A stretch of 64,000 nucleotides of DNA from an uncultured virus (IMG/VR IMGVR_UViG_3300002488_000005) (IMGVR_UViG_3300002488_000005:1-64000); one strand, 5' to 3'. Counted from the first letter of the stretch, positions 12,072 through 64,000 are shown. Translations and numbers: made by a program. Notes: generated from the letters alone by a model not told the origin.

Positions 12072-12080
12072 AAATAATAC

Positions 12081-12109
12081 TTGACAACATCATAAAAACA
12101 TGTTAGAAT
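12081..12109 (+). promoter_or_regulatory. sigma70-type promoter
   Basis: TTGACA, 17 bp ending in TGn, TAGAAT, upstream of 12133. Confidence 0.8.
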
Positions 12110-12132
12110 AATAATAGGAGCTAATAATAGCA

Positions 12133-13344: not shown

Positions 13345-13355
13345 GAAGCCAATAA

Positions 13356-14399: not shown

Positions 14400-15381
14400 A
14401 ATATTAGTAACAGGCGGCGCCGGTTTTATAGGACATCAAGTAATTTACAGATTGTTGAAAGATACAGATTATGATGTGGTCACAATTGACCGCTTAGATA
14501 CCTCTGGAAACCTAAACAGGATTCAGGAAGTCTTAGATGTAAACCCGGAATGGAAAAAAAGGTTTAGCTTTCATTGGCATGACTTAAAAGCCCCTATAAA
14601 CGAAACACTTAGAAAACAAATCGGAAAAATAACTCACGTTATACATTTAGCTGCCGGTTCTCACGTTGATCGCTCTATTGAAGATCCAATGTCTTTTGTT
14701 ATGGATAATGTTGTTGGTACGACAAATGCCCTTCTTTATGCAAAAGAGCTAGATGATCTTAAGATGTTTATTAACTTCTCCACCGACGAAGTATTTGGTC
14801 CCGCTCCAGAGGGTGTGGCCTATAAGGAATGGGACAGATATAACAGTGGTAACCCATATTCCGCTTCCAAGGCAGGCGCAGAAGAAATGTGTTTGGCATT
14901 CTGTAACACTTATAAAATGCCCATTGTTACAACGCACACAATGAACGTTTTTGGAATCAGACAACATCCAGAAAAATACATTCCCCTTTTGATACAAAAG
15001 ATTCGTGACGGAGAAACAGTAACAGTTCACTCGAACAAAGAAAAGACAAAAGCCGGATCCAGATTTTACATCAACACAGATGATGTTGCTGACGCTATTT
15101 TGTTTTTACTTGAGAACGCTGTAGTTGGCGACAAATACAACATTGTGGGTGAACAAGAGGTTGATAATTTAGAATTAGCAAACATGGTCTCAAAAATCAT
15201 GAATAAGCCATTGAAATACAAAATGGTTGATTTTCATTCATCAAGGCCGGGACATGACTTGCGCTATGCTCTGTGTGGTGAAAAAATGAAAAGTCTTGGC
15301 TGGACTCCAAAAGTGCCTGTACAAAAAAGGCTAAAGGAGGTTGTTTGTTGGACTCTTGATAATCAAAGGTGGCTAAAGTGA
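14389..15381 (+). CDS. rmlB: dTDP-glucose 4,6-dehydratase
   Basis: VTGGAGFIG, HLAAGSHVDRSI, STDEVFG, PYSASKA, QHPEK, RPGHDLRY. Confidence 0.9.
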   Translation: MDYRILVTGGAGFIGHQVIYRLLKDTDYDVVTIDRLDTSGNLNRIQEVLDVNPEWKKRFSFHWHDLKAPINETLRKQIGKITHVIHLAAGSHVDRSIEDPMSFVMDNVVGTTNALLYAKELDDLKMFINFSTDEVFGPAPEGVAYKEWDRYNSGNPYSASKAGAEEMCLAFCNTYKMPIVTTHTMNVFGIRQHPEKYIPLLIQKIRDGETVTVHSNKEKTKAGSRFYINTDDVADAILFLLENAVVGDKYNIVGEQEVDNLELANMVSKIMNKPLKYKMVDFHSSRPGHDLRYALCGEKMKSLGWTPKVPVQKRLKEVVCWTLDNQRWLK

Positions 15382-16067
15382 AAAATAAAAATGTAGTTTA
15401 TACTGCGATCTATGGCAACAAGGATACACTTAAGGACCCGCTGTATAATAATAGCGACTATGACTATGTTTGCTACACAGACAATAAAGACATAAAATCA
15501 AAAGTTTGGAAAGTTATTTACCATGAACCAATTAGTAAAGATCCTGTTAGGAGTGCAAAAATCTTCAAGGTCAAGCCCCACGAATTTTTGAAAGATTATG
15601 ATCTTAGTATTTGGGTGGATGCAAATTTTTTGATTTGCTCTGATTTGGGCGGATTTACAAGTCGATTTGGGGATCAAGCAAACATCTTAACATTTCAACA
15701 TGACCAAGGCAGGAATTGTATTTATGATGAGGCCAAGGTTGTTACTAGATTCAATAAGGACAACCCAGAAATTGTTAGTGCCCAAATGAAGAAATATAGA
15801 ACAGAACAGTATCCCGAACAAAATGGCTTAACAGCAAATTCTATTTTACTGAGGAGGCACAATAAAACGGATGTTATTGAGCTAATGAATTTTTGGTGGA
15901 ATGAGATTGAAAACCACAGCAGAAGAGACCAGCTAAGTTTTTGCTATAGTAAATGGAAATTGAAGACAAAAATGTTTATGCTAAAGTACCCAAACTACAA
16001 CATAAGATTAAATGAGTGGTTCCGTTGGTTACCGCACAACTACGAATCTCAACCATGGGAGTTATAA
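15378..16067 (+). CDS. DUF616-like glycosyltransferase
   Basis: VVYTAIYG..D, YVCYTD, FKVKPH, SIWVDAN, RNCIYDEA, SRRDQLSF. Confidence 0.8.
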   Translation: MKNKNVVYTAIYGNKDTLKDPLYNNSDYDYVCYTDNKDIKSKVWKVIYHEPISKDPVRSAKIFKVKPHEFLKDYDLSIWVDANFLICSDLGGFTSRFGDQANILTFQHDQGRNCIYDEAKVVTRFNKDNPEIVSAQMKKYRTEQYPEQNGLTANSILLRRHNKTDVIELMNFWWNEIENHSRRDQLSFCYSKWKLKTKMFMLKYPNYNIRLNEWFRWLPHNYESQPWEL

Positions 16068-16780
16068 TGCTACTATCAGTGATAATTTCAACTTATAATA
16101 GAAGCGATGTTTTAAAGAAAAATTTAGACTGTTTTCAAAACCAAACAGATATGCAGTTTGAGATTGTTGTGGGCATAGACGGCTCCACTGACAATACTGT
16201 GGATATGCTAAGAGAATATAAATCTGACTTTGAGATCAGATGGGTTGACTCAAAAGAGACGAATAAATACTGCTTAGCGAAAGTAAGGAATATGGCCCTT
16301 ATTGAAACCAGAGGCACCGGTGTTGTAATTCTAGATGATGATAGCTTTCCAACGCCTGAATTCATCGCAGAGCACAAATCGTCAATTAGGCCGAAGACAC
16401 TGACTGGCGGATATAGAAATTCTTTTGATCCCAAGGATCATTTGCATGCAAAAATGGCAAGATATTTACAATCTTATGGCTCTCTGAAGCCGACAAAAAT
16501 TAGAGAGATTTTAGTTGAAAACAATTGTTCAATGCTAAGAAAAGATTGGATTGGTTGTGGTATGTTCTCTGAAAGGTTTGAGGGCTATGGCGGAACAGGG
16601 CAAGAGTTTTTCTTGAGACTTAAGCACCTAGGGTTCGATTATCAGTTCAATCCACGAGCTATGATTTTTCACCATAAAGAGTTTGAGGGTGACAACGGAC
16701 TAACCAGAGAAATAAAAATGAGACAAGCAGCAGAAATGAAAAAACTAATAAATAAACACGCTTGGAGTTATAATGGTTAA
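16067..16780 (+). CDS. glycosyltransferase family 2
   Basis: SVIISTYNRS, IDGSTDNT, RN.A, LDDD. Confidence 0.85.
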   Translation: MLLSVIISTYNRSDVLKKNLDCFQNQTDMQFEIVVGIDGSTDNTVDMLREYKSDFEIRWVDSKETNKYCLAKVRNMALIETRGTGVVILDDDSFPTPEFIAEHKSSIRPKTLTGGYRNSFDPKDHLHAKMARYLQSYGSLKPTKIREILVENNCSMLRKDWIGCGMFSERFEGYGGTGQEFFLRLKHLGFDYQFNPRAMIFHHKEFEGDNGLTREIKMRQAAEMKKLINKHAWSYNG

Positions 16781-17441
16781 TACAGCAGATTTATTATCAA
16801 CCAGAATAGAGGAAATTGAATTGCCTCCAAAATACCTTGAGTTGTGGAATGGGATCAATTACCCAATCCAAAAAAGAAAAGCATCCAATTTCAGATTAGA
16901 TGAAAACGAAAAAGAAATAATCTTGAACAAACTTTCCAAAAGAGCATTTTTCCTTACAACGATCGCTGAGTATTTCAAAGCAAAAAATATTGTAGAAGTA
17001 GGAACAGCAGAAGGTTGGCAATTCTTTAGCTTCGCTGAATACTGCAAAAATGTTGATGGCAAGGTATGGAGTTGTGACATTGACGACAGAAGAAGCCAAA
17101 AGTACACAAAAGAGTATAAAGACACTGCGACTTTTGTTCTGGGTGACAGTAAAAAATTAGCAGAAGAGATAATTCAAAACGGAACTAAAATTGATTTATT
17201 TTATATCGATGGATCACACGACAGAAATGCTGTATTAAGAGATGTAAGTAACTTGAAGAGCATACAAAACCCAGATTCAACTCCTGTTTGGATTTTTGAT
17301 GATTATGATGAACGTTTTGGGTGTTATCATGACATTTCATTGATATTGAAGTCTGCCCCAAGTTATTTTGTTTATTCGCCCGGCAAGACAGCTAGTGGCA
17401 ACCCAACGCATCAGGCAATTATGAGAGGATTTTTTAGGTGA
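16773..17441 (+). CDS. class I SAM-dependent methyltransferase (Methyltransf_24-like)
   Basis: IVEVGTAEG, SCDID, GDS, IDLFYIDGSH, FDDY. Confidence 0.85.
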   Translation: MVNTADLLSTRIEEIELPPKYLELWNGINYPIQKRKASNFRLDENEKEIILNKLSKRAFFLTTIAEYFKAKNIVEVGTAEGWQFFSFAEYCKNVDGKVWSCDIDDRRSQKYTKEYKDTATFVLGDSKKLAEEIIQNGTKIDLFYIDGSHDRNAVLRDVSNLKSIQNPDSTPVWIFDDYDERFGCYHDISLILKSAPSYFVYSPGKTASGNPTHQAIMRGFFR

Positions 17442-18385
17442 AAATTTTATTTTTTGAAAGAAACCATGGCAATTCTTATTCCTATTATAATGAAATAAGA
17501 AATGCACTTGGACGCATGAACACTGTTTATCAATTTGGAAAATGGTCTCCAATAGGAGGACCGGAAATACATATTAATGATGTATTGAGCCTGTGCCCGC
17601 AAAAGCCGGATATAATTTTGTTTGGATTCGGATGGACAGATTGTTCTGAAAATTACCCCAAGCAAGTCAAAGGTCTCGACGCATGCAAAATCCCAGTCGC
17701 TGTGATCCTAAACAAAGAATATGCAGCATTAGATAAAAAACTTGATTGGATAAAGAAGATGAAACCGGAAGTAGCTTTTTGTGTTCATCATGATTATGAT
17801 GAGTATTCAAAAGTAACTGGTGTTCCGTTTTATCAAATTCCCTTCGCAGTTAATCCAAAAATATTTAAAAAGTATGATAATGAAGAGTATGATTGTGATT
17901 TTGGTTTTTCTGGTGTTATCAGACCAGAGCAAACAGAAGATTGGAGAGCTAAAATTGTCGAGAAGAGCAGCCAATGGTCTGACATTGAGTTTTCATTCTC
18001 GCAGCATCGACATGACTCTCTGGAATCTTACGCCAGAAGACTCAACAGATCAAGAGCATGGCTAAGTACAACAGGTCCAGCAGACCTTGTTGGGACAAGG
18101 TATTACGAAGTTATGGCCTTGGGCACTACTTTGCTCGTGTGCAATAGGTTTGATAGAGTTTACGATGGCCTATTTGAAGAAAATAAGCACTGTGTCATGT
18201 TCAGTTCTATCGAAGAATTAGAAGAAAAGATAAAATACTATTTGAAAAACCCAACAGAGATGAAGACTATTATTGACAATGCTATGAAACACACTTTAGA
18301 GAATCACACTTGGGACCACAGAGCGGAAAAAATCACAAAAATTCTGAAGGATGTGGCCTTTGAAACCAAAACAGGAGAATTGTAA
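17438..18385 (+). CDS. glycosyltransferase (CgeB/Glyco_trans_1_2-like)
   Basis: PFAVNP, FSG, RYYEVMALG, ENHTWDHRA. Confidence 0.8.
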   Translation: MKILFFERNHGNSYSYYNEIRNALGRMNTVYQFGKWSPIGGPEIHINDVLSLCPQKPDIILFGFGWTDCSENYPKQVKGLDACKIPVAVILNKEYAALDKKLDWIKKMKPEVAFCVHHDYDEYSKVTGVPFYQIPFAVNPKIFKKYDNEEYDCDFGFSGVIRPEQTEDWRAKIVEKSSQWSDIEFSFSQHRHDSLESYARRLNRSRAWLSTTGPADLVGTRYYEVMALGTTLLVCNRFDRVYDGLFEENKHCVMFSSIEELEEKIKYYLKNPTEMKTIIDNAMKHTLENHTWDHRAEKITKILKDVAFETKTGEL

Positions 18386-19392
18386 TGAAAAAAGCATTAG
18401 TATGCGGCGCAGGTGGCTTTATTGGTGGTCACTTGGTTAAGTTTCTGAAATCCAAAGGATATTGGGTTCGTGGGGTTGATTTGAAGCAGAACGAATTTCA
18501 AGACATTCATACAATCGCAGATGAGTTTTGTGTAGGCGACTTAAGAGATCCAAAATTTGTTCGTTCTGTCATCGACACAGGCATGGATGAAATTTATCAA
18601 CTAGCAGCCGATATGGGAGGGGCAGGTTTTGTCTTTACTGGTGAGAATGACGCCGATATTATGCACAACTCTGCACTGATTAATTTGAATGTTGCTTATG
18701 AGGCGTGTAAGAAGGGCGTAGGGAGAGTGTTCTATTCATCATCCGCCTGCATGTATCCAGAGCACAATCAGATGGATTCTGATAATCCCAATTGTATCGA
18801 AAGTAGCGCTTACCCTGCAAATCCAGATTCAGAGTATGGCTGGGAAAAACTATTCTCTGAAAGAATGTTTTTATCTTTTATGAGAAATAAAGGCCTTGAG
18901 GTTAGAGTTGCAAGGTTTCATAATATTTTTGGCCCTTACGGAACATGGACAGGTGGACGTGAAAAGGCCCCTGCTGCATTTTGTAGAAAAGTTGCCGAAG
19001 CTCCTGAGGGGAGTTCTGTTGAAATATGGGGTCCCGGAACACAAACTCGTTCGTTTTTGTATGTAGATGAGTGTGTTGAGGCAACGTATAGATTTATGCA
19101 TTCTGATTTTGAAGGACCAGTCAACATTGGCTCTGAAGAGATGATTTCGATGAATGATTTTGCTAAAATGATTATTGAGATAGCCGGAAAAGATCTGTCA
19201 ATTTACAACATTCAAGGAAAGGAATTTGAGGAAAAGTACGGGCACAAGTGCCCTGTTGGCGTGAATGGTAGAAATTCTGATAACGCCCTATACAAAAAGA
19301 TGGTTGGTTGGGTTGTATCTGAGCCTTTGCGTGATGGAATTGTAAAAACCTACAAATGGATTGAAAATGAGGTTAATAAAGATGAAAGCTAA
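18385..19392 (+). CDS. NAD-dependent epimerase, GDP-mannose 3,5-epimerase-like
   Basis: GAGGFIGGH, LAADMGGAGF, YSSSACMYP, YGWEKL, RFHNIFGP..TWTGGREKAPAAFCRK, GRNSDN. Confidence 0.88.
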   Translation: MKKALVCGAGGFIGGHLVKFLKSKGYWVRGVDLKQNEFQDIHTIADEFCVGDLRDPKFVRSVIDTGMDEIYQLAADMGGAGFVFTGENDADIMHNSALINLNVAYEACKKGVGRVFYSSSACMYPEHNQMDSDNPNCIESSAYPANPDSEYGWEKLFSERMFLSFMRNKGLEVRVARFHNIFGPYGTWTGGREKAPAAFCRKVAEAPEGSSVEIWGPGTQTRSFLYVDECVEATYRFMHSDFEGPVNIGSEEMISMNDFAKMIIEIAGKDLSIYNIQGKEFEEKYGHKCPVGVNGRNSDNALYKKMVGWVVSEPLRDGIVKTYKWIENEVNKDES

Positions 19393-20260
19393 GCACAATG
19401 CTTGTATAGCAATTTTAAGTGCAAGAAAAGAAATGTTACCAACTTGTTTGAAAAACTTTTCACTTTATCATCCTTGTGACTATGATCTTTACGTCTATCA
19501 ATTTGGAAACATCTATACAGATGATGATAAAGAGAAGGTTATAAATAGTTATTCCGGAAAAGTTACATTTGTTACAATACATCCTAAAGTCCCCCCTCAC
19601 TTGAGTGAGGTTGATCTATTTTATAATAGAACGTATAACCAGTATGCTCGTTTTGAGTTTCCCAAATCTAGAACAAATTATTTACATATGTGTAATTTTT
19701 TGACTTGGGAGTTGTTTGAAAGGCAAGAGTTGAGTAGTTATGATTATATAATAAGATTTGATGACGACTCTTGGTTCAAAAAGAGCTTTGGTTTTGATGT
19801 CGTCGATAAATTTATAGAAGAAGAGAGTAAAAGAAATGGTGAGTTATTTTGCATTAATTCATATTTTTGGGGAATGAACGAGCAGTTCAACCCAAGACAT
19901 TCTCAAACTAGAGAAAATTTATTTAATTTTGTAAAGTCATATGTTGAATCTAATGAGGTTTGCCCAAAGAGTTCAAGTCTTAGGAGAGCTATTGATGACA
20001 ATGATGAAATTGCTTTCCACAAAATGGGATGGAAGTCAGATTTATCTGTTTGGAAAAACGGCTTTCAATATCATGAAAATTGGATAAATTGGGTTGATCG
20101 CATAAGAAAGCATGGAGGCATCTACAAGCATAGGTGGGGATGTTGCGAACTACATCATCTTTATGGCTACATGTATTATAAGGACGGTGTTCATAACATG
20201 AATCTAAAAGAACAACAACTATATGATGGGCATTTGCCAAATTTTTACATTATAAGATAG
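19382..20260 (+). CDS. GT15 (Kre2/Mnt1/KTR)-like mannosyltransferase
   Basis: YLHMCNF, YDYIIRFDDDS and GGIYKHRWG resemble the YRHMCRF, YDYYWRVE and GGFFYERWGD motifs of GT15. Confidence 0.65.
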   Translation: MKAKHNACIAILSARKEMLPTCLKNFSLYHPCDYDLYVYQFGNIYTDDDKEKVINSYSGKVTFVTIHPKVPPHLSEVDLFYNRTYNQYARFEFPKSRTNYLHMCNFLTWELFERQELSSYDYIIRFDDDSWFKKSFGFDVVDKFIEEESKRNGELFCINSYFWGMNEQFNPRHSQTRENLFNFVKSYVESNEVCPKSSSLRRAIDDNDEIAFHKMGWKSDLSVWKNGFQYHENWINWVDRIRKHGGIYKHRWGCCELHHLYGYMYYKDGVHNMNLKEQQLYDGHLPNFYIIR

Positions 20261-20273
20261 AGGAGATTGAAGA

Positions 20274-21221
20274 ATGAAAATAAATAAATGTTGCGTCATT
20301 GGCGCAAACGGCTTTATAGGATTTGAGATAGTGAATTATTTACTTTCTAAGGGCGATGAGGTGACTTGTTTTGATGTTGACACGAGTAGAAAGGAAGCGC
20401 ATGGTAATTTGAGGTTTGAAAGTTTAGACATTACAAATAGAAAAATGTGCTTTGATAAGTTGAAAAATTTTGACGAAGTTTACAATTGTGCTGGTGTTTT
20501 AGGAACTTCTGAATTGAACGAAATGATTACAACTGCTGTGAAGGTCAATGTCATAGGATGTTTGAATGTTTTTGATGCTTGTAACAATAATAAAATACCG
20601 AGAGTATTTTATCCATCTAAGCCAAACCCTTGGCTCAACACCTACACGATAACAAAAGAAGCATCAGAAAAATTTTCACAAATGTACAATGAAAAGAGCA
20701 ACACTACCAAAATAATTTCTATGAGGTGGTTCAATGCTTTTGGTCCACACCAGCATACACACCCAGTCCGAAAAATAGGCCCCACATTCAGCTTATTGGC
20801 TAAAGAAAGATTGCCAATTGAGATATTTGGTTCCGGCGATAATGTTGTAGACATGATAACCGCAAAAGATATTGCTAAATGGTCTGTCGAAGCAACCAGA
20901 CACAATTTTTGGGAAGAGGTGTATGATCTCGGAAGAGGAGTGCCTGTGACTGTTAAGCAATTTGCAAAAGATATTAATAAAATTTCTGGTAACAAGTCGG
21001 GAGTTAGTTTTGTTAGAATGAGAGAAGGAGAGGATGAAGACACTATTCTAGTCGCAGACATTTCTGAACTAAGAAAGCGATTTGCTGAAAATGGAATTGA
21101 AATGGTATTTGAAGACTATCAAAAAAGTCTGAAAGAGATGTATGATTTTTACGCTTCAATACCAGACACAAAGCGACACGAGATATTATCTTTTCATGGT
21201 TTTGGAGTTTCTAATGGCTAG
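20274..21221 (+). CDS. NAD-dependent epimerase/dehydratase
   Basis: IGANGFIG, YTITK (YxxxK), RWFNAFGP. Confidence 0.85.
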   Translation: MKINKCCVIGANGFIGFEIVNYLLSKGDEVTCFDVDTSRKEAHGNLRFESLDITNRKMCFDKLKNFDEVYNCAGVLGTSELNEMITTAVKVNVIGCLNVFDACNNNKIPRVFYPSKPNPWLNTYTITKEASEKFSQMYNEKSNTTKIISMRWFNAFGPHQHTHPVRKIGPTFSLLAKERLPIEIFGSGDNVVDMITAKDIAKWSVEATRHNFWEEVYDLGRGVPVTVKQFAKDINKISGNKSGVSFVRMREGEDEDTILVADISELRKRFAENGIEMVFEDYQKSLKEMYDFYASIPDTKRHEILSFHGFGVSNG

Positions 21222-22098
21222 ATGTTTAGTAACAGGACATAAGGGATTTATTGGTTCTAGGCTTTATAGGAAACTAAAAGAGGATGGCCATGAAGTATTA
21301 GGTATAGATATAAAGGACGGCCCTTCTAGAGATATTTTGAACTGCTTGAAGGAGGACGTTGATGGGTCTTTTGAATCTTTATTTTGGGATTTCAAACCTG
21401 AATTTATTTTTCATCTGGCTTGTATACCTAGAGTAGCTTATAGTGTTGAAAATCCTGTTCAAACGATGAAAAATAATGTTATTATAACAACATATGTTCT
21501 TAACTTTGCCAAAAAAGTAGGAGCTAAAAGGGTGATTTATTCTGGGTCCTCTTCTGTGGTCGGTAATGGCGACGGCCCTAATAGCCCATATGGACTTCAA
21601 AAGCTAATCTCAGAGATGGAGTGTAAATTATATTCTGATTTATACGATTTGGATACTGTTTCTTTGAGATACTTCAATGTCTATTCTGAAAACCAGACAG
21701 TAGACGGCCCATATGCTACTGCTATTGCAAACTGGATGCATTATATCAGAATTGGCAAGACGCCATTCATCACAGGGACAGGAGAGCAAAGAAGAGATAT
21801 GGCTTATGTTTGGGATGTTGTTGATGCTAACATTTTTGCAATGAAATACAAAAACAAATTCAATGGACAACATTATGATGTGGGGACTGGCGAGAACATC
21901 TCTCTCAATGAAGTAAAGACGATAGTGAAAAAATATCACGATATAGACTTTGTGTATGTAGAGGAAAGAAAAGGCGATGTTTTGTTAACAAAAGCTAACA
22001 TCGAGCCTTTATTACGAATAGGGTGGAAAGCAAAAACTAATTTACAAAGCGGAATTGATAAATGTTTCCGCTTCAAAATAAAAGATAATAGGAGTTAA
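21214..22098 (+). CDS. NAD-dependent epimerase/dehydratase
   Basis: VTGHKGFIGS, HLAC, SPYGLQK, RYFNVY, GTGEQRRD. Confidence 0.88.
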   Translation: MARCLVTGHKGFIGSRLYRKLKEDGHEVLGIDIKDGPSRDILNCLKEDVDGSFESLFWDFKPEFIFHLACIPRVAYSVENPVQTMKNNVIITTYVLNFAKKVGAKRVIYSGSSSVVGNGDGPNSPYGLQKLISEMECKLYSDLYDLDTVSLRYFNVYSENQTVDGPYATAIANWMHYIRIGKTPFITGTGEQRRDMAYVWDVVDANIFAMKYKNKFNGQHYDVGTGENISLNEVKTIVKKYHDIDFVYVEERKGDVLLTKANIEPLLRIGWKAKTNLQSGIDKCFRFKIKDNRS

Positions 22099-56154: not shown

Positions 56155-56676
56155 ATGAAAGAAGTTGTTTTAGGATTAGATATCAGTACTAGTAAAGTTG
56201 GTCTTTGTGTAATGGATTATAAATTCAATCTATTAGAGACCACGCTGATCAAGTTAAATACAAAAGAAGCACTAGAAGACAGGTGCCTACACATAGAAGA
56301 GTTTATTAACAATCTTGATTATAACATCAAAGATGTTTATGTCGAGTCTGCTTTTATAGCATTTTCCGGTGGAAAGACATCAGCAGTCACAATGAGCAAG
56401 CTACAGAGATTCAACGGAATGGTTTGCTTTATGATTAGAAAGCTGCTTGGCTTTATGGCAGTTCCATTGTCACCTGCTAAAGCAAGAGGGCTCGTTCATC
56501 TAAAAATAAAGCGTGGAGAAAACACCAAGCTAAGAGTGATTGAGCATGTTGAGCGTGCATTCCCAAAAGACTTTAATTATGAACTAACAAGACATGGAAA
56601 CCCTAAGCCCGGCACCGATGATCGAGCGGATGCAATTGTCATTGCATGGGCTGGCTTAAATCAAAAAAAGACCTAA
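56155..56676 (+). CDS. RuvC-like Holliday junction resolvase
   Basis: VLGLDISTSKVG, VYVES, DDRADAIVIA (RNase H-fold acidic residues). Confidence 0.8.
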   Translation: MKEVVLGLDISTSKVGLCVMDYKFNLLETTLIKLNTKEALEDRCLHIEEFINNLDYNIKDVYVESAFIAFSGGKTSAVTMSKLQRFNGMVCFMIRKLLGFMAVPLSPAKARGLVHLKIKRGENTKLRVIEHVERAFPKDFNYELTRHGNPKPGTDDRADAIVIAWAGLNQKKT

Positions 56677-56679
56677 TTA
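56673..56679 (+). promoter_or_regulatory. putative late promoter variant CTAATTA
   Basis: overlaps the RuvC stop and precedes 56703. Confidence 0.4.
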
Positions 56680-56702
56680 ATGATTGATTGGAGTTATTGA
56701 TT

Positions 56703-57833
56703 ATGAATTTTACATTGGAACAAGTACAACAAATCATTCAAGAGGAACTTGAAGATATTATCGCTGAGGATTGTTGGGATGGATATGAGCGTGTCGAAGG
56801 AACTGCTGAAGGTGCTCCCGGCTCTTGTCGCAAGAAGACTGACGAAAGTATAAACGAAGAGCAGATTGACGAAGCAGAAATTTGCAAGAAAGGAAAAGAT
56901 TGGGTTGATGGTAAGACAATCGGAGGCCAGAAGGTTAGCCGTGGTAAGGATGGAAAGTTCAACAACTGGTCTGCAAGAGCAGCACAAATTGCATCTAAAT
57001 ATTGCAAAGACCCTAACTACGGAAAAGGTAGAGGCAAGGATTCTAAAAAGGAAGGAATCATCAGAGAAGAAGAAGGTGGCCTGAAAAAATGGGAAAGAGA
57101 AAACTGGACTCATTCAGATGGTTCGCCGTGTGGTGCACCCAAAGGAGGAGGCGACGGATCTGATAGTCGCTGCAAGCCAGCATCAAAATGGGCAAAAATG
57201 TCTTCTAAAGAAAAGAAGGCTGATAATGCGAAAAAGAAGCGTGGCACCGATAAAGGCAAGCAATATGTAAAATCTAATTATCCTGTAAAAAACGAATCAC
57301 GTAAAAGGGTTATTGAAGTGCGTATAGTTAAAAAATCAAAATTAAAAGAACAAAAAAATTGTGGCTGTGGTCAAGACCCATGCAAAACATATGGACTCCA
57401 AGAGCAATACATCAGAGAAGAAGAAATGAGCGATAAGGACAGAAAAGAGTTGGAGCAAATTCGAGATAAATTATATGGCGCTTCAAAAGCACATAAAGGC
57501 CAAGCAGATAAACTTGATGGCATATTGAAAGAAGAAGAATTAGAAGAAGCGGTGTATCAAGGAAGAACAGTTACGCTAAACAAGCCAATGCGTGGTGACG
57601 TTAAAAAATTCAAAGTTTATGTCAATTCTGGGAAAAAAGACAAAGATGGTAAAGTAATAGCAAAGAAAGTTAATTTTGGTCACGGTGGAACCTCAGCTAA
57701 AGCCAAAGGCGAAAAGACAATGAAGATTAGAAAAAACAATCCGAAGGCTAGAAAAAACTTTAGAGCCCGTCACGGTTGCGATAATCCGGGACCAAAAACG
57801 AAAGCCAAATATTGGTCTTGCAAAAAGTGGTAA
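56703..57833 (+). CDS. modular basic protein, putative head-packaged polyprotein
   Basis: short K/R/C/W-rich modules separated by acidic I/L-x-E linkers. Confidence 0.7.
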   Translation: MNFTLEQVQQIIQEELEDIIAEDCWDGYERVEGTAEGAPGSCRKKTDESINEEQIDEAEICKKGKDWVDGKTIGGQKVSRGKDGKFNNWSARAAQIASKYCKDPNYGKGRGKDSKKEGIIREEEGGLKKWERENWTHSDGSPCGAPKGGGDGSDSRCKPASKWAKMSSKEKKADNAKKKRGTDKGKQYVKSNYPVKNESRKRVIEVRIVKKSKLKEQKNCGCGQDPCKTYGLQEQYIREEEMSDKDRKELEQIRDKLYGASKAHKGQADKLDGILKEEELEEAVYQGRTVTLNKPMRGDVKKFKVYVNSGKKDKDGKVIAKKVNFGHGGTSAKAKGEKTMKIRKNNPKARKNFRARHGCDNPGPKTKAKYWSCKKW

Positions 57834-57840
57834 AAAATAC

Positions 57841-57868
57841 TTGACAAATTTTTCTAATAGGTTATATT
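57841..57868 (+). promoter_or_regulatory. sigma70-type promoter
   Basis: TTGACA, 16 bp, TATATT, followed by GGAGG and the ATG at 57891. Confidence 0.65.
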
Positions 57869-57890
57869 GATATTAACATCGGAGGTCAAT

Positions 57891-58808
57891 ATGACAATAA
57901 ACTTAGGATATGCATGTATCAACATGACATTACAAAAACAAAAGATCTGCTCTAATCGTGGCATGATCAAGCGCACTTTTAAATCTAAAGGTGTCGCATA
58001 CGCATCAGAGCTAGCACTTATAAACGTGAAGGCTCTCAAAAAGATTATCGAGTGGAATAACACAAACGGCATCAAAGTCTATCGCATGACATCATGCCTG
58101 TTCCCTTGGTTCTCAGAATATGATATTTTTACTTTGCCAGACATTGATGCTATTGCTGATATTTTGTCCGAAGCTGGTGAAATTGCAATGTCTGGCGGTC
58201 AACGTTTATCATTTCACCCCGGTCCCTTCAATTGTCTCGCATCTCCAAGCGACGATGTGGTTCGCAAAACTATCGCAGAACTTGACGCACACTCGACGCA
58301 AATGGATCTTATGGGTTTGCCGGAATCTCCCCAAGCTAAAATCAACATTCATGTCGGTGGTTCATATGGTGAACACGACAAAGCTCTTGCTAGATTCTGT
58401 AACAACTTTGCAAGACTGGCTCCAAACACACAAGCCAGACTCACTGTTGAGAACGATGATCGAGCCTCTCTGTATTCTACTAAAATGCTATACGACGGTG
58501 TGTTTTCTAAAGTTGGTGTTCCAATAGTTTTCGACTCACATCATCATGAACTTGGTCCCCAAGATCTAGATTATCACGATGCGTTTTATCTTGCACGATC
58601 AACGTGGGACAAGATTGGTGTTAAGCAGATTTGTCATCATTCAAACTCTAAGAAAAAGTATGAGGACGAGTCAGTCAGAGCTAGTGCACATTCGGATTGG
58701 TACTATACGCCATTCGAAAACTACAAACAACCAGTCGATGTTGTGCTTGAGTGCAAGATGAAAGAGCAAGCGTTACTAAAATACAAAAAAGATTTTACAT
58801 GCGTGTAG
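57891..58808 (+). CDS. uvsE: UV-damage endonuclease (UvsE/UvdE)
   Basis: LGYACIN, YRMTS.LFP, RLSFHPGPF, INIHVGG, RLTVENDD, FDSHHH, HSD, LECKMKE. Confidence 0.93.
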   Translation: MTINLGYACINMTLQKQKICSNRGMIKRTFKSKGVAYASELALINVKALKKIIEWNNTNGIKVYRMTSCLFPWFSEYDIFTLPDIDAIADILSEAGEIAMSGGQRLSFHPGPFNCLASPSDDVVRKTIAELDAHSTQMDLMGLPESPQAKINIHVGGSYGEHDKALARFCNNFARLAPNTQARLTVENDDRASLYSTKMLYDGVFSKVGVPIVFDSHHHELGPQDLDYHDAFYLARSTWDKIGVKQICHHSNSKKKYEDESVRASAHSDWYYTPFENYKQPVDVVLECKMKEQALLKYKKDFTCV

Positions 58809-58978
58809 GCGATCTTGTTGTTTGGAAGCCTGACCTGCCCTTTCAATTCTCTAGAGATTATGGAATTGTCATTGAGGTTATTGATGGCTTTTTGGTCGGT
58901 GTTTTGTGGCTCGGCTCTACCGAAGTTTATTTAGAGCCAATTAGGTATTTGGAGGTTATTTATGAAGAGGGCAATTAG
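58799..58978 (+). CDS. SH3/KOW-like microprotein, array unit 1
   Basis: MRVGDLV...YGIVIEV...VLW...LEV. Confidence 0.7.
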   Translation: MRVGDLVVWKPDLPFQFSRDYGIVIEVIDGFLVGVLWLGSTEVYLEPIRYLEVIYEEGN

Positions 58979-59174
58979 TTCCATAAAGAAAGGTGCGCTT
59001 GTAAAAAAGAAGTACAATATTGACGAGGTTTTTGGCATCACAACCTCAAATGTCGAATACCATAGTCCAATGAACAGCGGCACAGTTACCGCATATATTT
59101 GGGTTTTATGGGATGATGGTGACCACCACCTTTACAAAGTAGATATGTTGGAGGAAGTAAATGAAAGTAGGTGA
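58962..59174 (+). CDS. SH3/KOW-like microprotein, array unit 2
   Basis: IKKGALV...FGI...WVLW...LEEVNESR; GGAGG SD. Confidence 0.7.
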   Translation: MKRAISSIKKGALVKKKYNIDEVFGITTSNVEYHSPMNSGTVTAYIWVLWDDGDHHLYKVDMLEEVNESR

Positions 59175-59328
59175 TTTAGTAAGAGTAAAAAATACGCCGT
59201 GGGATGATTTAGGAATTATTTTAGAAATAAACGGCAATTTCAAGTGGGCAGAAGTGCATTGGGTAACTTCCGGGTACATCTATGCTTTTTTTGCTGAAGA
59301 CTTGGAGGTAGTAAATGGAAGTGGGTGA
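59161..59328 (+). CDS. SH3/KOW-like microprotein, array unit 3 (55 aa, absent from the ORF track)
   Basis: hand translation MKVGDLVRVKNTPWDDLGIILEINGNFKWAEVHWVTSGYIYAFFAEDLEVVNGSG; GGAGG SD. Confidence 0.8.
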   Translation: MKVGDLVRVKNTPWDDLGIILEINGNFKWAEVHWVTSGYIYAFFAEDLEVVNGSG

Positions 59329-59497
59329 TCTCGTTTGGCTCGATAGGAGACAATTTTATGAGCATGACGAGAACGTTGGTATTATTTTAGAAGTCTTACA
59401 GACTCCTGATGGCAAACTTCTTAAAGTTGCATGGGATAATAATGAGGCTTCATGGTTTCACGAAGACGAATTGGAGGTAATAAGTGAAAATAGGTGA
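59315..59497 (+). CDS. SH3/KOW-like microprotein, array unit 4
   Basis: MEVGDLV...VGIILEV...KVAW...LEVISENR. Confidence 0.8.
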   Translation: MEVGDLVWLDRRQFYEHDENVGIILEVLQTPDGKLLKVAWDNNEASWFHEDELEVISENR

Positions 59498-59660
59498 TTT
59501 GGTTAAACTTAAAACAGGAACTGAGATTTATGGCTTCATTGTTTGTATACAAGAAAATAAATGGATTGGTTCTCGATGCGCCGTTGTCTGGCTACAGGAC
59601 GGATTCCCAAAGAAATGGTATGCATTAGTCGAACTGGAGGTGTTAAATGAAAGTAGGTGA
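59484..59660 (+). CDS. SH3/KOW-like microprotein, array unit 5 (58 aa, GTG start, absent from the ORF track)
   Basis: hand translation MKIGDLVKLKTGTEIYGFIVCIQENKWIGSRCAVVWLQDGFPKKWYALVELEVLNESR. Confidence 0.78.
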   Translation: MKIGDLVKLKTGTEIYGFIVCIQENKWIGSRCAVVWLQDGFPKKWYALVELEVLNESR

Positions 59661-59832
59661 TATAGTTTACATGAGCAAATCGATGCTCGAAATGGGATAC
59701 CCAGAGATGGGAATAGTTGTGGGAATGAAAGGTAAACATTATGTTGTTGGTTTTCCAAATGGATTGGTTCAACCATTTCATCCTAACTGGGTTAGGGCCA
59801 TATCAATCGAAAGGAAGAATAATGGCAAATAA
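59647..59832 (+). CDS. SH3/KOW-like microprotein, array unit 6
   Basis: MKVGDIV...MGIVVG...YVVGF. Confidence 0.75.
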   Translation: MKVGDIVYMSKSMLEMGYPEMGIVVGMKGKHYVVGFPNGLVQPFHPNWVRAISIERKNNGK

Positions 59833-60067
59833 ATTTAAGGTAGGAGATCTTGTGAGGCATGTGCACTGGGATCTGTATGGAATAATTGTGCCAAGTGACA
59901 ATTATTATAACTGGGTAAGAGTGATGTGGACTCGTGGAGATTTGGAAAAGCCACCCCAAGGAATTACTTGGATGATGAAGGAGGAACGAGTTGGTTGGAA
60001 TTCAACACAATTCCCCGTTTGTAAAGTGGCGAAGCATTGGATCAAATTAGTACAAAAGGAGGAATAA
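59822..60067 (+). CDS. SH3/KOW-like microprotein, array unit 7
   Basis: MANKFKVGDLV...YGIIV...RVMW. Confidence 0.7.
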   Translation: MANKFKVGDLVRHVHWDLYGIIVPSDNYYNWVRVMWTRGDLEKPPQGITWMMKEERVGWNSTQFPVCKVAKHWIKLVQKEE

Positions 60068-61005
60068 TGGAAGAAAAAGTTAAAATTTTATCGGAGATCT
60101 TGGGAAGACCCAACACTCCATCGGGCGGTGAGTTGTACTACCATTGTCCTTATTGTAATCATCACAAGAAGAAGTTGGCAGTCAATCTCAAGAAAGGTTG
60201 GCACTGCTGGGTCTGCGACAAACGAGGCAAGAATGCTTATCGCATTGTCCGTAAGTTTGGAACATACCAGCAAAGACAGAAGTGGCTTGAGTTGGAAGGT
60301 CGTCTCGACCTATCAGAATTTGATCAAATCTTTAATGAATTGAATAATCTTGAAGAAGTACAGACAATCTCACTACCAGATGAATTTATATCGCTCTGTA
60401 ACAAACACCTGCCTCGCACATGCAGAAAACCTTTAGAATACTTGGAGAGCAGAGGTATAGGCAAAGATAAGATACTGAGATGGAAAATAGGTTACTGTCC
60501 CGAAGGCCAATATGGAGGCAGAATAATCATACCTTCGTTCAACAATAACGGAGACATTAATTATTTTATTGCAAGATCTTATGTTGGTCACTCATGGAGA
60601 TACCTCAATCCCCCGGCTAAAAAGGACGTTATTTTCAACGAATTGTTTGTAGACTGGGATGAGCCGATCACGTTAGTAGAAGGAGTTTTTGATGCTATAG
60701 CGGCTGGGGAAAATGCTATTCCTGTGCTTGGGTCCACCCTGCGAGACAAAACAAAATTATTTCAGGCGATAGCCCTGAATGACACGCCGGTTTACTTAGC
60801 TTTTGATCAAGACGCTGAAAAAAAGACTGGACAAATTATTAAGAACATGTTATACTATGATATAGAGTTATACAAGATAGATGTAAGTGGCTTTGAGGAC
60901 ATCGCTGAAATGCCACGAAGGGTTTTGGAAACTCGAAGGGAAATGGCGCAAGCCATTGACCATGATGATTATTTTTTAATTGACGAACTTAGGAGGATAA
61001 TGTGA
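60067..61005 (+). CDS. DNA primase (Zn finger + TOPRIM)
   Basis: CPYC...WHCWVC, YLESRGI, RIIIP, RYLNP, LVEGVFDA, FDQDA. Confidence 0.85.
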   Translation: MEEKVKILSEILGRPNTPSGGELYYHCPYCNHHKKKLAVNLKKGWHCWVCDKRGKNAYRIVRKFGTYQQRQKWLELEGRLDLSEFDQIFNELNNLEEVQTISLPDEFISLCNKHLPRTCRKPLEYLESRGIGKDKILRWKIGYCPEGQYGGRIIIPSFNNNGDINYFIARSYVGHSWRYLNPPAKKDVIFNELFVDWDEPITLVEGVFDAIAAGENAIPVLGSTLRDKTKLFQAIALNDTPVYLAFDQDAEKKTGQIIKNMLYYDIELYKIDVSGFEDIAEMPRRVLETRREMAQAIDHDDYFLIDELRRIM

Positions 61006-61199
61006 GTGAGAAAGAGAAAGAATATTTACAAAAAGATTATATTAAACTAAAAAATATATGCCGTGATCTTGTTTGGATGACACACGGAACAACGGATAAA
61101 GAAGAGCATTATGACTTAGTCAAAATGACAATACCAGCAATCAGGGAAGCCCTTGAAATTATGAAGCAACTTATAGAGGAGGAACAATGTATAAGATAG
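61002..61199 (+). CDS. hypothetical protein
   Basis: 65-aa ORF with GTGA overlap and AGGAGG SD. Confidence 0.6.
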   Translation: MSEKEKEYLQKDYIKLKNICRDLVWMTHGTTDKEEHYDLVKMTIPAIREALEIMKQLIEEEQCIR

Positions 61200-64000
61200 C
61201 ACACATAGCAGACACACACATAAGAAACTTGAAGTATCACGATGAGTATAGAATCGCCTTTCGTGATCTTTATGAAAAATTAGCAAGCGACATGCCGGAC
61301 CTTATTGTCCATTGCGGTGACCTTGCACATACAAAGACGCAACTCAGTCCTGAATATTTTCAACTGTGCGCAGAGTTTCTATCGTCTTTAGCCAACATAG
61401 CGCCAACATATGTTATATTGGGTAATCACGATGGCAATCTCAAGAACGACAGTAGGCAAGATGCGATTACGCCTATTGTAAATGCACTGAACCATCCACG
61501 ATTACATTTACTAAAAGATAGTGGTGAAGTTCATATTGGCAATGATTTGGTTCTAAATGTGCTTTCAATCTTTGACCGAGACAATTGGGCCAAACCAACA
61601 AACAAAGAAAAAATTAACATTGCCTTGTATCATGGGGCAATTGCCGGTAGCCAAACCGGTGCAGAATGGACAATGGACCAAGGAGATGACGATGTTTCTA
61701 TTTTTCATGATTTTGATTTTGCGATGCTTGGAGACATCCACAGACAGCAACAGCTAGACCTTGATGGTAGAGTCTGGTACTGTGGTTCAACCACTCAGCA
61801 GAAATTTAGCGAGTCTGCTCGCAAAGGTTATCTTTTGTGGGAAATAAACTCAAAAGACAAGTTTAACGTTTCAAAAAGATTCGTAATAAATCCAAGACCN
61901 TTTATTACAATAAGNCTAACAGATAAAGGTGCGCTACCAGACACTCATGTACCTAGAAATGCAAGACTCAGAATCATCTCTAGAACCAATTTGCCGGCTG
62001 ATAAACTTAGGAAGGCAAGATCAATAGCGGAAATGAAATGGAGCCCTCATTCCGTAACAATGCTCAACGGCAAAGAATCGTCAAAAATGCATGATGAAGG
62101 CTATTATTCGAACTCTGTCTTATCTGAAAATCTAAGAGATATCAGTGTGCAAGAAAAATACATTAAGAACTATTTATCCGACATGGAGCTTGAACCTAGC
62201 GTTTTGGAAAAGGTTCTTGAGCATAACCAGAAATACAATACATTAGCAGAACAAGGGGAGGAAGTTAGTAGAAATGTTATATGGAAAATTAAAAAAGCAG
62301 AATGGGACAATTTGTTCAACTACAGTGAAAAGAATGAAATCGACTTTGCAAAACTCAACGGGCTTGTTGGCATCTTTGGCCGTAATTATTCCGGCAAGTC
62401 TAGTATTATCGACAGCATTTTATTCACGCTGTTTAATGCAACCTCGAAAGGTGAGCGAAAGAACGTACACGTCATAAACCAAAATAAGCAAAAGGCTATT
62501 GGTAAGGTAGAGATTGAGGTTGGAGATAAAACCTACAAAATCTGTAGAAATTTAGAGAAGTATACTAAAAAGTATAAAGGCAAGGAGTCTCAAGAGGCTA
62601 AAGTTGATTTAGATTTTCATCTAGTTTCTGATGATGAAAGCCTGAACGGTACAACAAGGAATGAAACTGATTCCAACATTAGAAAGCACTTTGGGAGCAT
62701 GGAGGACTTTTTGTTAACATCCATGTCTTCCCAGTTAGATTCTTTGTCTTTTGTCAAAGAAGGTTCTACGAAGCGTAAAGAAATTCTCGCTAAGTTTCTG
62801 GATTTGGAAATATTTGATAAAAAGTTCAAGTTGGCCAAAAAGGACGCTGCTGAGTTGCGTGGTGTCGTAAGAAGGCTACAGGATAAAAAGTGGGATAAAG
62901 AGATCCAAAAGAACATAGAGATCTTGGAGGAAATCAAGCACGATCTTGCTAACCAAAATACCAAATGTCAAAAAATAACATCAGAGTGCGACAGTCTTCA
63001 GGCAGAACTTGACATTCTCAATTCCAGAATTGAGAACATACCAGCAGAGCCAATTGACATTGATAAGGTTATTTTAGAAATTAGTAAGATACAGAAACGT
63101 AAGCAGCACCTCAAAGATCAAACTCAAGATTTCAATTTCAAGGTCTGGGAAATGGAAGAGCAGGTTGAATCTAAAAAGAAAGAGTTTGCGGAGATCAATA
63201 TAGGCGAATTACGTCTTAGTAGAGCATCTGCTGATGCTATCGAGCATAAAATCAAAAAGACACGTGAAGCTATATCAAACTGGATTTCGCAAGAAAAGGT
63301 AGCACTAAAAAAGATCAAGATGTTAGATAATCACGAATATGATCCCAACTGCGTGTTCTGTTGTGAAAATAAGTTCGTCAAAGATGCACATGATGCTAAA
63401 TCTTCTTTACCCGATACGTTGGAGAAAATTGCCCATCTACAGCAGCACCAAAGAGATCTACAGGACTCGCTAAATGACCTAGACGTAGAAACAGTAGATA
63501 GCCAAATTGATTTACATGTCAAACTACAGGAAGACATTCACCGCCTAAGCAGAACAATTGAGATGCACAAAATTTCTATTGAAGGCAACAAATCAAAAAT
63601 AAATCTCCTACATAAGGAATACGAAGAGTTGTGTGAAAAGAAAAACCTTTATGAAGAAAATCGAGAAGCAATTGAAAATTTAGAGACATTATCTAGAGAA
63701 AAGAATGCTTTAGAAATGGTAATTCGCAGTAAGCAAAATTCTTATAAAAAGTGCCAAGATAGAATAACTGAGATTCTTGTTGAGAAAGGGTCAACCAAGT
63801 CGACATTGGCTACGTTGCTTGAAAACCGTAAAGAACTAGAGGATGTTGAGAGAGAGTGGATCGCTTATGATTTGTTTTTGCAATGTATGCATGCAAATGG
63901 CATTCCTTACCAAATTATAAAACAAAAACTTCCTTTACTAAATGAAGAGATTGCAAAAATTCTAGAGAACATCGTTGATTTTGAAGTCTTTTTTGAGAGT
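61187..64000 (+). CDS. fused Mre11/SbcD nuclease - Rad50/SbcC ATPase (3' partial)
   Basis: hand translation: AHIADTH, CGDLAH, GNHD, LYHG, GDIH, then in frame GRNYSGKS (Walker A, 62378-62401), coiled coil and CVFC hook (63350-63361); no stop seen. Confidence 0.88.
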   Translation, partial: MYKIAHIADTHIRNLKYHDEYRIAFRDLYEKLASDMPDLIVHCGDLAHTKTQLSPEYFQLCAEFLSSLANIAPTYVILGNHDGNLKNDSRQDAITPIVNALNHPRLHLLKDSGEVHIGNDLVLNVLSIFDRDNWAKPTNKEKINIALYHGAIAGSQTGAEWTMDQGDDDVSIFHDFDFAMLGDIHRQQQLDLDGRVWYCGSTTQQKFSESARKGYLLWEINSKDKFNVSKRFVINPRXFITIXLTDKGALPDTHVPRNARLRIISRTNLPADKLRKARSIAEMKWSPHSVTMLNGKESSKMHDEGYYSNSVLSENLRDISVQEKYIKNYLSDMELEPSVLEKVLEHNQKYNTLAEQGEEVSRNVIWKIKKAEWDNLFNYSEKNEIDFAKLNGLVGIFGRNYSGKSSIIDSILFTLFNATSKGERKNVHVINQNKQKAIGKVEIEVGDKTYKICRNLEKYTKKYKGKESQEAKVDLDFHLVSDDESLNGTTRNETDSNIRKHFGSMEDFLLTSMSSQLDSLSFVKEGSTKRKEILAKFLDLEIFDKKFKLAKKDAAELRGVVRRLQDKKWDKEIQKNIEILEEIKHDLANQNTKCQKITSECDSLQAELDILNSRIENIPAEPIDIDKVILEISKIQKRKQHLKDQTQDFNFKVWEMEEQVESKKKEFAEINIGELRLSRASADAIEHKIKKTREAISNWISQEKVALKKIKMLDNHEYDPNCVFCCENKFVKDAHDAKSSLPDTLEKIAHLQQHQRDLQDSLNDLDVETVDSQIDLHVKLQEDIHRLSRTIEMHKISIEGNKSKINLLHKEYEELCEKKNLYEENREAIENLETLSREKNALEMVIRSKQNSYKKCQDRITEILVEKGSTKSTLATLLENRKELEDVEREWIAYDLFLQCMHANGIPYQIIKQKLPLLNEEIAKILENIVDFEVFFES

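Follow-up and report, generated by a model that had tools for sequence, protein, structure and literature searches.

Why would a virus string seven small genes together so that each starts inside the end of the one before, with likeness in their DNA confined to the seams? The question is raised by a stretch of 64,000 nucleotides (nt) from an uncultured virus (IMG/VR IMGVR_UViG_3300002488_000005, positions 1 to 64000), hereafter called the window, which makes up the first 64 kb of a linear viral record of 78.6 kb, rated 43% complete by CheckV. Seven small + strand open reading frames (ORFs), which we call units u1 to u7, sit there between a gene for a UvdE endonuclease and a gene for a DNA primase. 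Our explanation, which we consider likely, is that they form a translationally chained array of diverged SH3/KOW/Tudor-like paralogues, with unit turnover bounded by the gene junctions, in a large marine tailed phage. Each unit would fold into a free-standing five-stranded beta-barrel of about 55 to 80 amino acids (aa), in which the hydrophobic core and the termini would be conserved and loops, length and charge would be free to vary.

The seven units, their kinship and their predicted fold

The initial annotation of this DNA had described seven overlapping ORFs of 55 to 81 aa with a common skeleton. All seven are present, and G4, V7, G22 and V35 are invariant in their seven-way alignment. In the list below, cluster letters (A to X) denote groups defined at 45% identity or more, and bit scores refer to an independent profile, built from 524 units of other contigs and excluding the window's clade and four sequences at least 45% identical to window units. 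Numbers preceded by L denote loci on other viral contigs.

58799..58978, + strand, u1: 59 aa, cluster A; its ATG lies within a 75-aa GTG ORF; 33.1 bits
58962..59174, + strand, u2: 70 aa, cluster E; 16.5 bits; absent from L002
59161..59328, + strand, u3: 55 aa, cluster B; 40.9 bits
59315..59497, + strand, u4: 60 aa, cluster C; 38.3 bits
59484..59660, + strand, u5: 58 aa, GTG start, cluster D; 36.0 bits
59647..59832, + strand, u6: 61 aa, cluster F; without the W and L-E-V motifs; 22.2 bits
59822..60067, + strand, u7: 81 aa, cluster X; its ATG lies within a 108-aa ORF; C-terminal extension; 32.9 bits

Successive overlaps from u1 to u7 are 17, 14, 14, 14, 14 and 11 nt. Unit u2 is extended at its N-terminus and has a long beta2-beta3 hairpin. 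Genes of this kind are overlooked by gene callers or given wrong starts; two of these seven lie within longer ORFs.

Are the seven related to one another? Pairwise BLAST among them is weak: of the 21 pairs, 5 reach E<1e-3, and another 5, each of which includes u2, have no hit. Every unit matches the independent profile, at 16.5 to 40.9 bits; among 200 shuffles of each unit, the highest score does not exceed 7.5. When 7 N-terminal and 9 C-terminal residues were removed, the units still scored 2.4 to 22 bits, indicating that the profile signal lies mostly in the termini, with the core contributing too.

The AlphaFold2 model of u3 is a five-stranded barrel (predicted local distance difference test, pLDDT, 93.5; predicted template modelling score, pTM, 0.77). 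For u2, the weakest profile match, the model is the same barrel with a longer beta2-beta3 hairpin (pLDDT 86.4). Both are strongly bent antiparallel barrels of five strands within about 55 to 70 residues, as is typical of the SH3/KOW/Tudor class, so that the shared SH3/KOW-type fold proposed originally was borne out in both units modelled. The u3 model gave VIA Z scores of 8.7 to DSIF KOW6-7 (root-mean-square deviation 1.8, 51 aligned), 8.7 to the PHF19 Tudor domain and 8.0 to NusG KOW, and the u2 model gave 7.6 to Spt5 KOW and 7.5 to the Tudor domain of ERCC6-L2. Solved domains matched by both models were the KOW domains of Spt5/DSIF/NusG, the Tudor domains of PHF19, SMN and ERCC6-L2 and the PWWP domain of Shuguo, and further the N-terminal domain of Hpy99I, R67 DHFR, NdhS, YorP and HspQ. 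Foldseek against the PDB gave no match at E<=0.001. Scores of this size for predicted models would indicate a generic SH3-like small barrel and would carry no functional information. The KOW motif itself (Pfam PF00467) had no match at E<=1 for the seven units, nor at E<=0.1 for 43 family members, and the resemblance to KOW is therefore confined to the level of the fold. Among viral structures in BFVD, the best matches to u3 were unnamed proteins of 50 to 70 aa, 24 to 36% identical, with adjacent UniProt accessions (A0A516M7.. and A0A516MB..), which suggests that at least one deposited viral genome holds many family-like genes.

Could these be chance ORFs over a non-coding repeat, or over an RNA element? 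Such an explanation would suit their shortness and the fact that Pfam and PHROGs gave nothing above threshold for the seven units. Nevertheless, in all 17 orthologous unit pairs the proportion of nonsynonymous differences (pN, 0.08 to 0.40) was lower than that of synonymous differences (pS, 0.30 to 0.91) with five overlap codons per end removed; orthologous units are under purifying selection. The fold predictions are confident, homologues number in the thousands, and Rfam gave no match at E<=1. We regard a non-genic origin as extremely improbable. The units evolve faster than the primase, for which pN is 0.03 to 0.11.

The family is large and has no name. Hidden Markov model (HMM) scans of 235 loci and the window found 881 units, in arrays of 1 to 11; the 567 distinct proteins among them are spread over 161 loci and fall into 457 clusters at 60% identity. 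A word-indexed search returned 684 family proteins, and among the 120 matches listed none had a Pfam domain or a name beyond 'hypothetical protein'. An exhaustive profile search of a 1.84-billion library gave 4,328 representatives (50% identity) at E<=1e-3. Five near-complete genomes of 184 to 293 kb had 16, 15, 4, 21 and 11 matches, grouped in few blocks. The junction pattern described below occurred in at least 155 stretches of viral contigs and in 5 stretches among 596 billion bases of prokaryote genomes, all five on contigs of metagenome-assembled genomes (MAGs). Three of these five carry arrays, under the labels Deltaproteobacteria, Flavobacteriales and Legionellales. The labels are inconsistent; the three are probably mis-binned phage contigs, and so name no host.

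The top matches of the exhaustive search were long proteins with 5 to 15 tandem copies of the domain, which Pfam assigns to SH3_15 (Mind bomb SH3 repeat): P0121 (1,319 aa) has 15 matching stretches and P0122 (636 aa) has 9, with SH3_15 at 7.1e-71 and 6.9e-97. The family profile reached E values of 4.9e-35 and 2.7e-27 on SH3_15 multi-repeat proteins, scores that sum 9 to 15 weak repeats; over the long proteins of this kind its E values span 1e-25 to 5e-35. Against PDB sequences it gave 7.4e-4 for MIB1 and 1.9e-3 for HERC2, with a best single-domain i-Evalue of 0.16. As a group, the long profile matches run from 340 to 3,386 aa with 3 to 15 tandem SH3_15-like copies, and P0133 also has an N-terminal RING finger. 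Family members themselves did not reach the SH3_15 (PF18346) gathering score of 24 bits: 2 of 43 members matched at E<=0.1 (best 0.011), and none of the seven window units did. No Pfam family matched more than two of the 43 at E<=0.1. The SH3_15 (Mib/Herc2) domains of MIB1 and HERC2 have the same small barrel and a similar V-x-W-D-x-G motif, but they are fused in one polypeptide, whereas the array holds separate genes.

Other searches gave little. Blastn of the region against GenBank phages found no match, and tblastn of u3 and u4 against the same phages found none at E<=0.01 (for u3, none even at E<=10). Matches in the ESM Atlas were to unnamed clusters, and the nearest named proteins (DsrB, R67 DHFR), with scores of at most 0.87, count as leads. 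Word searches of the open-access literature found no description of the family or of the junction architecture. Elsewhere in the window, positions 11904-11975 match the N-terminal half of the unit profile weakly (E 0.0028, 14.4 bits); the match falls in an open frame of 77 aa that follows a glycosyltransferase gene and may be a diverged or truncated member of the family.

The junction repeat and its constraints

How is one unit joined to the next? The junctions are the following.

59148..59191, + strand, junction copy 1 (u2/u3), the reference: L-E-E-V-N-E-S-R-stop, GGAGG, M-K-V-G-D
59302..59345, + strand, junction copy 2 (u3/u4): 73% identical to the reference
59471..59514, + strand, junction copy 3 (u4/u5): 80% identical; homology with L001 ends at 59514
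59634..59677, + strand, junction copy 4 (u5/u6): 70% identical; homology resumes at 59647 with L001 and at 59632 with L002
58949..58978, + strand, partial junction (u1/u2): 17-nt overlap; 18 nt in common at 78%; left edge of a 199-bp indel against L002
59810..59838, + strand, second-type junction (u6/u7): AAAGGAAGAATAATGG
60055..60083, + strand, second-type junction (u7/primase): AAAGGAGGAATAATGG; 83% identical

The main junction is one repeat family of four 44-nt copies, 70 to 80% identical to the reference copy and spaced by 154, 169 and 163 nt. Five shared junctions of about 30 nt had been reported initially; four of them are strong, whereas the one at 58949 shares just 18 nt. The accompanying claim of a 13-nt distance from the beginning of the repeat to the start codon holds at all five. 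A 25-nt degenerate pattern, GGAGGTNATNANTGAAANTNGGTGA, finds exactly the four main junctions at up to 3 mismatches, with 0.05 expected and none of 100 shuffles reaching four. The second type, AAAGGARGAATAATGG, is 29 nt long at 83% and occurs at u6/u7 and u7/primase. Similarity between units at the DNA level is confined to the junction (about 28 to 44 nt), unit copies being less than 40% identical; Tandem Repeats Finder reported nothing but a minor 19-nt repeat, as the unit bodies are too diverged for it.

That the same bases encode the upstream C-terminus, the Shine-Dalgarno GGAGG and the downstream M-K-V-G-D, as had been claimed, can be read directly from the main junction. Translation gives L-E-V-I/V-N/S-E-S/N-R-stop in the upstream frame and M-K-V/I-G-D in the downstream one, and GGAGG falls within the L-E-V codons, 6 nt before the ATG or GTG in u3 to u6. 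In the proposed mechanism, neighbours would overlap out of frame, typically by 14 nt, with a GGAGG(TGATC) site inside the last-strand codons L-E-V-I, and the ribosome that ends one unit would be placed on the start of the next, by termination-reinitiation or by unmasking of the ribosome-binding site. Overlaps between coupled genes are usually 1 or 4 nt and vary from pair to pair; the array, in contrast, reuses the same 14-nt overlap sequence family-wide, fixing the C-terminal residues of each protein together with the first five residues of its successor. As in the coupled genes, the downstream start lies inside the end of the upstream gene, and the ribosome-binding site before it is within upstream coding sequence. 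Translational coupling of overlapping prokaryotic neighbour genes is the subject of a review (PMC12548453).

The overlap was exactly 14 nt in 22 of the 33 junctions of the window and L001 to L006, a set collected through the primase. Overlaps of 23, 29 and 35 nt arise where the TGA in G-GT-GA-T is lost and the upstream frame continues. A second set of loci was collected through the junction pattern, and its 245 junctions with a 14-nt overlap gave 238 unique sequences, with the consensus TTGGAGGTGATCAGTGAAAGTCGGTGAT.

These sequences also bear on whether the overlaps are recoding sites, at which a +1 shift would yield a multi-domain SH3-repeat polyprotein like the SH3_15-repeat proteins. The tandem architecture of the best profile matches, P0121 and P0122, would be in keeping with such a product. 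Against it, all 238 have ATG or GTG 6 nt after GGAGG, with the T fixed (a partly circular count, as units were called at start codons), the number and order of units vary freely, and no slippery sequence was seen in the junctions of the window. We hold a polyprotein to be very improbable.

How much of the junction do known constraints explain? Synonymous sites were analysed in the 238 unique sequences, in which the seeding pattern had left wobble positions free. The Gly of G-D is GGT in 264 of 284 internal units, compared with 787 of 2535 other glycines, because its T is the T of the upstream TGA stop. The Ile codon before the start is ATC in 126 of 184 at the junction (29% in unit bodies), and the Val codon preceding that Ile is GTG in 84 of 191 (24% in unit bodies). 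The sequence GGAGGTGATC is an extended complement of the 3' end of 16S rRNA. Both biases lengthen ribosome-binding complementarity, so that E-V-I is a translated long Shine-Dalgarno sequence. In the start codon, T is invariant although it falls on a synonymous site of the upstream frame. At the third base of the Val3 codon (junction position +9, in L081 to L235), GTC was found 163 times and GTA 30 times; both encode Val downstream and Arg upstream, and the window's own junctions have A or G there. This preference for C over A is not explained by coding and may avoid an AGGTGA Shine-Dalgarno-like run after the start.

The C-terminal tail appears to serve the next gene as well as its own. Of 370 units with a family gene behind them, 287 have the h-E-h tail motif, compared with 61 of 140 without one; the last strand is thus in part structural and in part a translation signal. 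Unrelated genes directly upstream of a unit often end in N/D-E-S/N-R too, so that it is the downstream unit that dictates the tail. At the other end of some arrays (L003:5820-6017, L005:5826-6017, L006:5835-6017 and L009:24-209), the final unit has the C-terminus L-E-V-I-N/D-G-R/T-K-D-stop and a 17-nt overlap with the start of the primase gene, whose N-terminal M-E-E-K is encoded in this junction-like sequence. The primase's own ribosome-binding site thus acts as the terminal junction of these four arrays.

Units turn over with breakpoints at the junctions

Does the array change between relatives? A scan of IMG/VR seeded with the primase found 321 relatives, and 80 loci were kept. The family adjoins the primase in 9 of the 80, all with a primase at least 82% identical. 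Their unit orders, in cluster letters (L008 was not in the clustering), were as follows.

Window: A E B C D F X
L001 (primase 94%): A E B C J K F, then an HNH-like ORF
L002 (primase 95%): A B L F, then a small ORF
L003 (primase 86%): 11 units, D N O B P Q I R D S T; G H M 2 kb upstream
L004: U I C
L005: C E; G A upstream
L006/L007: D H V; G upstream

Arrays thus have 3 to 11 units, in differing order, in relatives with primases 82 to 95% identical. The variation in unit number and order foreseen in the initial annotation was found (7 units in the window, 4 in L002, 11+3 in L003): E stands before B-C in the window and after C in L005, and H moves from one group of neighbouring units to another.

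The breaks in DNA homology were also found where they had been predicted, at the junctions. The window and L002 align up to 58948, after which L002 has a gap of exactly 199 bp that begins with one TTGGAGG (58949) and stops at another (59148); unit u2 is absent, junction to junction. With L001, colinearity of the window runs from 57835 to 59514, gives way to unrelated sequence and returns at the u6 ATG (59647), so that u5 (D) is replaced by J+K between 59514 and 59647. Turnover of units with breakpoints bounded by junctions is therefore observed. In the pattern-seeded set, among unit clusters found in at least two contexts, downstream neighbours differed in 22 of 26 and upstream neighbours in 28 of 32.

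The place taken by u7 in the window holds other genes in relatives. L001:5565-6014 has an ORF of about 146 aa with an HNH-type motif (C-x-x-C ... H-H ... C-x-x-C-H), and L002 (5012-5236) and L004 (5817-6014) have an ORF of about 65 aa that is probably helical. The slot between array and primase appears to be a hot spot of replacement.

Metagenome contigs of four sequencing runs were compared with the array. Two of the runs, X1 and X2, cover it fully without differences; the source sample may be among them. Spikes of depth at the junction bins come from other metagenome contigs that share only the junction.

In our explanation, units would be gained, lost, replaced and re-ordered through recombination or slippage between junction copies, and selection would retain only those events that leave both neighbours intact. 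A number of points weigh against it. Breakpoints at gene boundaries are also expected from selection alone. L008, with a primase 100% identical, has seven matches in corresponding positions and with almost equal scores, showing no turnover at the shortest distance. The same 60% cluster occurs twice in 1 of 155 multi-unit arrays, and there are no recent local duplications; the arrays are thus assembled from old, diverged units and not by recent duplication. Joints of metagenome contigs on the array were short-sided (20 to 54 nt) and were not counted as deletions, including the joint 58954->59159 in run X7 (side 21), which resembles the u2-less form. The count of 245 overlaps of 14 nt among 285 in the pattern-seeded set is biased by the seeding itself. 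AlphaFold2 was run on two of the seven units, both times with family alignments (43 units in that of u3). Free synonymous sites of the junction were no more alike within than between genomes at 4 of 5 sites, suggesting that the junction is held mainly by selection and not by homogenising recombination; at the exception, the wobble position of Val -6, sites were more alike within genomes (1 of 1000 permutations reached the observed value). There is little sign of within-genome homogenisation, and clear concerted evolution of the junctions is not apparent. Coding, stop-codon and ribosome-binding constraints largely explain junction conservation, at synonymous sites too, apart from the preference at Val3. 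A reading of the junction as a recombination element can be separated only partly from plain selective constraint, and in appearance the repeat is a by-product of signals for coding and translation, usable as microhomology, and not a dedicated recombination element.

At its extreme, this would mean that the junction is no substrate of recombination at all: dual coding together with ribosome-binding site, start and stop would conserve it, and illegitimate recombination or lateral exchange would occur anywhere, with survivors selected at gene boundaries. The synonymous biases, the lack of homogenisation, the rarity of duplicated clusters and the N-E-S-R endings that the downstream gene imposes on unrelated upstream genes all agree with this. 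However, the 199-bp indel is flanked on both sides by the direct repeat TTGGAGG, a signature of exchange between repeats, and the Val3/Arg preference, synonymous in both frames, does not come from coding. We consider selection alone an unlikely account.

The nearest described mechanism, and the closest known parallel, is shuffling mediated by promoter-early stem-loop (PeSL) elements in T4-type phages (Arbiol et al. 2010, PMC2839356), reportedly also treated by Comeau et al. in 2014 (PMC4122927). PeSL cassettes lie in hyperplastic regions of T4-type phages, and PeSL mini-circles are reported to have been demonstrated there. With PeSLs as in the array, small phage ORFs, most of them non-essential, have between them a repeated expression signal that is short and conserved. 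Whole ORFs are inserted, lost or replaced between close relatives at the repeated motif, as are u2 (199-bp indel) and u5 (D to J+K) here. In PeSLs, however, an intergenic sigma-70 promoter and a terminator stem-loop flank unrelated ORFans, whereas the signal in the array is a dual-coding translational overlap and the cargo consists of paralogues of one family. Units overlap by 11 to 17 nt, which leaves no DNA between the genes, the sole strong promoter-like site is upstream of the UvdE gene, and no terminator-like site was found on the + strand in 56500-61500.

Poxvirus gene accordions and the multigene families of African swine fever virus (ASFV) change the number of tandem paralogues fast, which is thought to aid host adaptation. 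In both, recombination is between whole similar copies, while array units are alike in their DNA only at the junction. Integron attC sites were not found: the overlapping genes leave no room for them, and the sole inverted repeat of at least 14 nt in 58700-60150 is a 15-nt pair at 59746/59940. Nor was any integrase family found among the 38 larger ORFs of the window that were scanned with Pfam.

It is conceivable, if doubtful, that the junction is the exchange site of a recombinase-free gene-cassette system in which large marine phages trade and re-assort individual genes for SH3-like binders, from array to array and from genome to genome. Each phage would keep a repertoire of 4 to 21 genes encoding small inhibitors of variable host or defence proteins, and coupling would never be broken. 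In function such a system would resemble integrons or gene accordions, although its components would be a ribosome-binding site, start codon and stop codon.

Gene neighbourhood and possible role of the units

What does the setting of the array say about its use? The neighbouring features are these.

57841..57868, + strand, putative sigma-70-like promoter TTGACA-16-TATATT, upstream of the UvdE gene; 11 of 12 positions match
57891..58808, + strand, UvdE (UV damage endonuclease) gene: Pfam UvdE at 8.3e-53; phrog_8420 endonuclease at 2.6e-43
60067..61005, + strand, DNA primase gene: phrog_47 DNA primase at 9.7e-38
61187..64000, + strand, Mre11-type phosphoesterase fused to a Rad50/SbcC-type ATPase: Metallophos at 1.7e-13, SMC_N at 1.7e-6, phrog_77 SbcC-like at 5.2e-37

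The UvdE gene starts with ATG at 57891, preceded by GGAGG at 57881, and its TAG stop overlaps the u1 start by 10 nt. The stop of u7 overlaps the primase ATG by 1 nt, so that UvdE through primase is a single unbroken chain of overlapping genes. The closest primases of cultured phages are about 33% identical to that of the window (tblastn). The Mre11-Rad50 fusion is one ORF of at least 937 aa that extends past the window end, with Metallophos at residues 3-185 and SMC_N from residue 368; the initial annotation had placed a primase and such a fusion downstream of the array, correctly. It had also proposed the promoter at 57841, and its hexamers are conserved in L001, L002 and L004 with a differing spacer. 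The site is the putative start of the transcription unit, and the array would be expressed early or in the middle of infection alongside DNA-metabolism genes.

DNA homology of the window with L001, L002 and L004 starts at 57833-57835, a few bases before the -35 hexamer, and farther upstream the sequences are unrelated or rearranged. The boundary at 57833-57841 may be a recombination boundary on the promoter side, reminiscent of PeSL behaviour. Directly upstream of the promoter-like site, 56688-57833 is a lysine-rich, low-complexity ORF of 381 aa, whose PHROG match (phrog_7595, unknown function) is confined to the C-terminal 100 residues.

Pfam and PHROGs also identified genes for a baseplate wedge subunit and PhoH and a long glycosylation cluster in the window, indicating a large tailed phage with a baseplate. 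The cluster of glycosylation and sugar-nucleotide genes (10591-22098 and 69-872) is unusually large for a phage and includes several NAD-dependent epimerases/dehydratases, GT1/GT2/GT4-type transferases, a methyltransferase and a phosphomannomutase.

Where do the units vary? Among 566 units, information is high at M-K-V-G-D-L-V, at G18, I19-L21, V32 and W34 (u3 numbering) and at L-E-V-I-S-E-S-R. The remaining positions hold 0.2 to 0.5 bits, and insertions are mostly in the beta1-beta2 and beta2-beta3 loops. The isoelectric point (pI) ranges from about 4 to 10, with quartiles of 4.9, 6.5 and 9.2, and 42% of the 566 units lie below 6. A constant scaffold with a freely varying surface fits many ligands better than one common ligand such as nucleic acid.

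This bears on whether the units bind nucleic acid, as accessory factors of replication and recombination working with the primase and Mre11-Rad50, rather than host proteins. The array is directly upstream of the primase and translationally linked to it, and the fold matches include KOW domains of NusG/Spt5 and a PWWP domain bound to single-stranded DNA. However, Z scores up to 8.7 are generic for such a barrel, the spread of pI is wide, and there is no conserved surface position beyond core and termini. Units are also found far from the primase elsewhere; in G002, for example, they lie at 8-22 kb and the primase locus at 101-114 kb. We judge a nucleic-acid-binding role improbable. That the units are diversified accessory binding modules, possibly directed against host or defence components, is a suggestion that we put forward tentatively.

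What does the array mean for the phages that carry it? The family is among the larger uncatalogued protein families of marine phages, with no Pfam or named PHROG family, and its array architecture is neat, widespread and apparently unpublished. The array shows that a dual-coding translation signal can double as microhomology, so that genes could be added, dropped or swapped with the expression of their neighbours undisturbed, and its architecture is a translational counterpart to the transcriptional cassettes of PeSLs. If the units do bind host or defence components, the arrays would mark hyperplastic accessory regions in uncultured phage genomes and would be a natural, combinatorially shuffled library of binding scaffolds of about 6 kDa.

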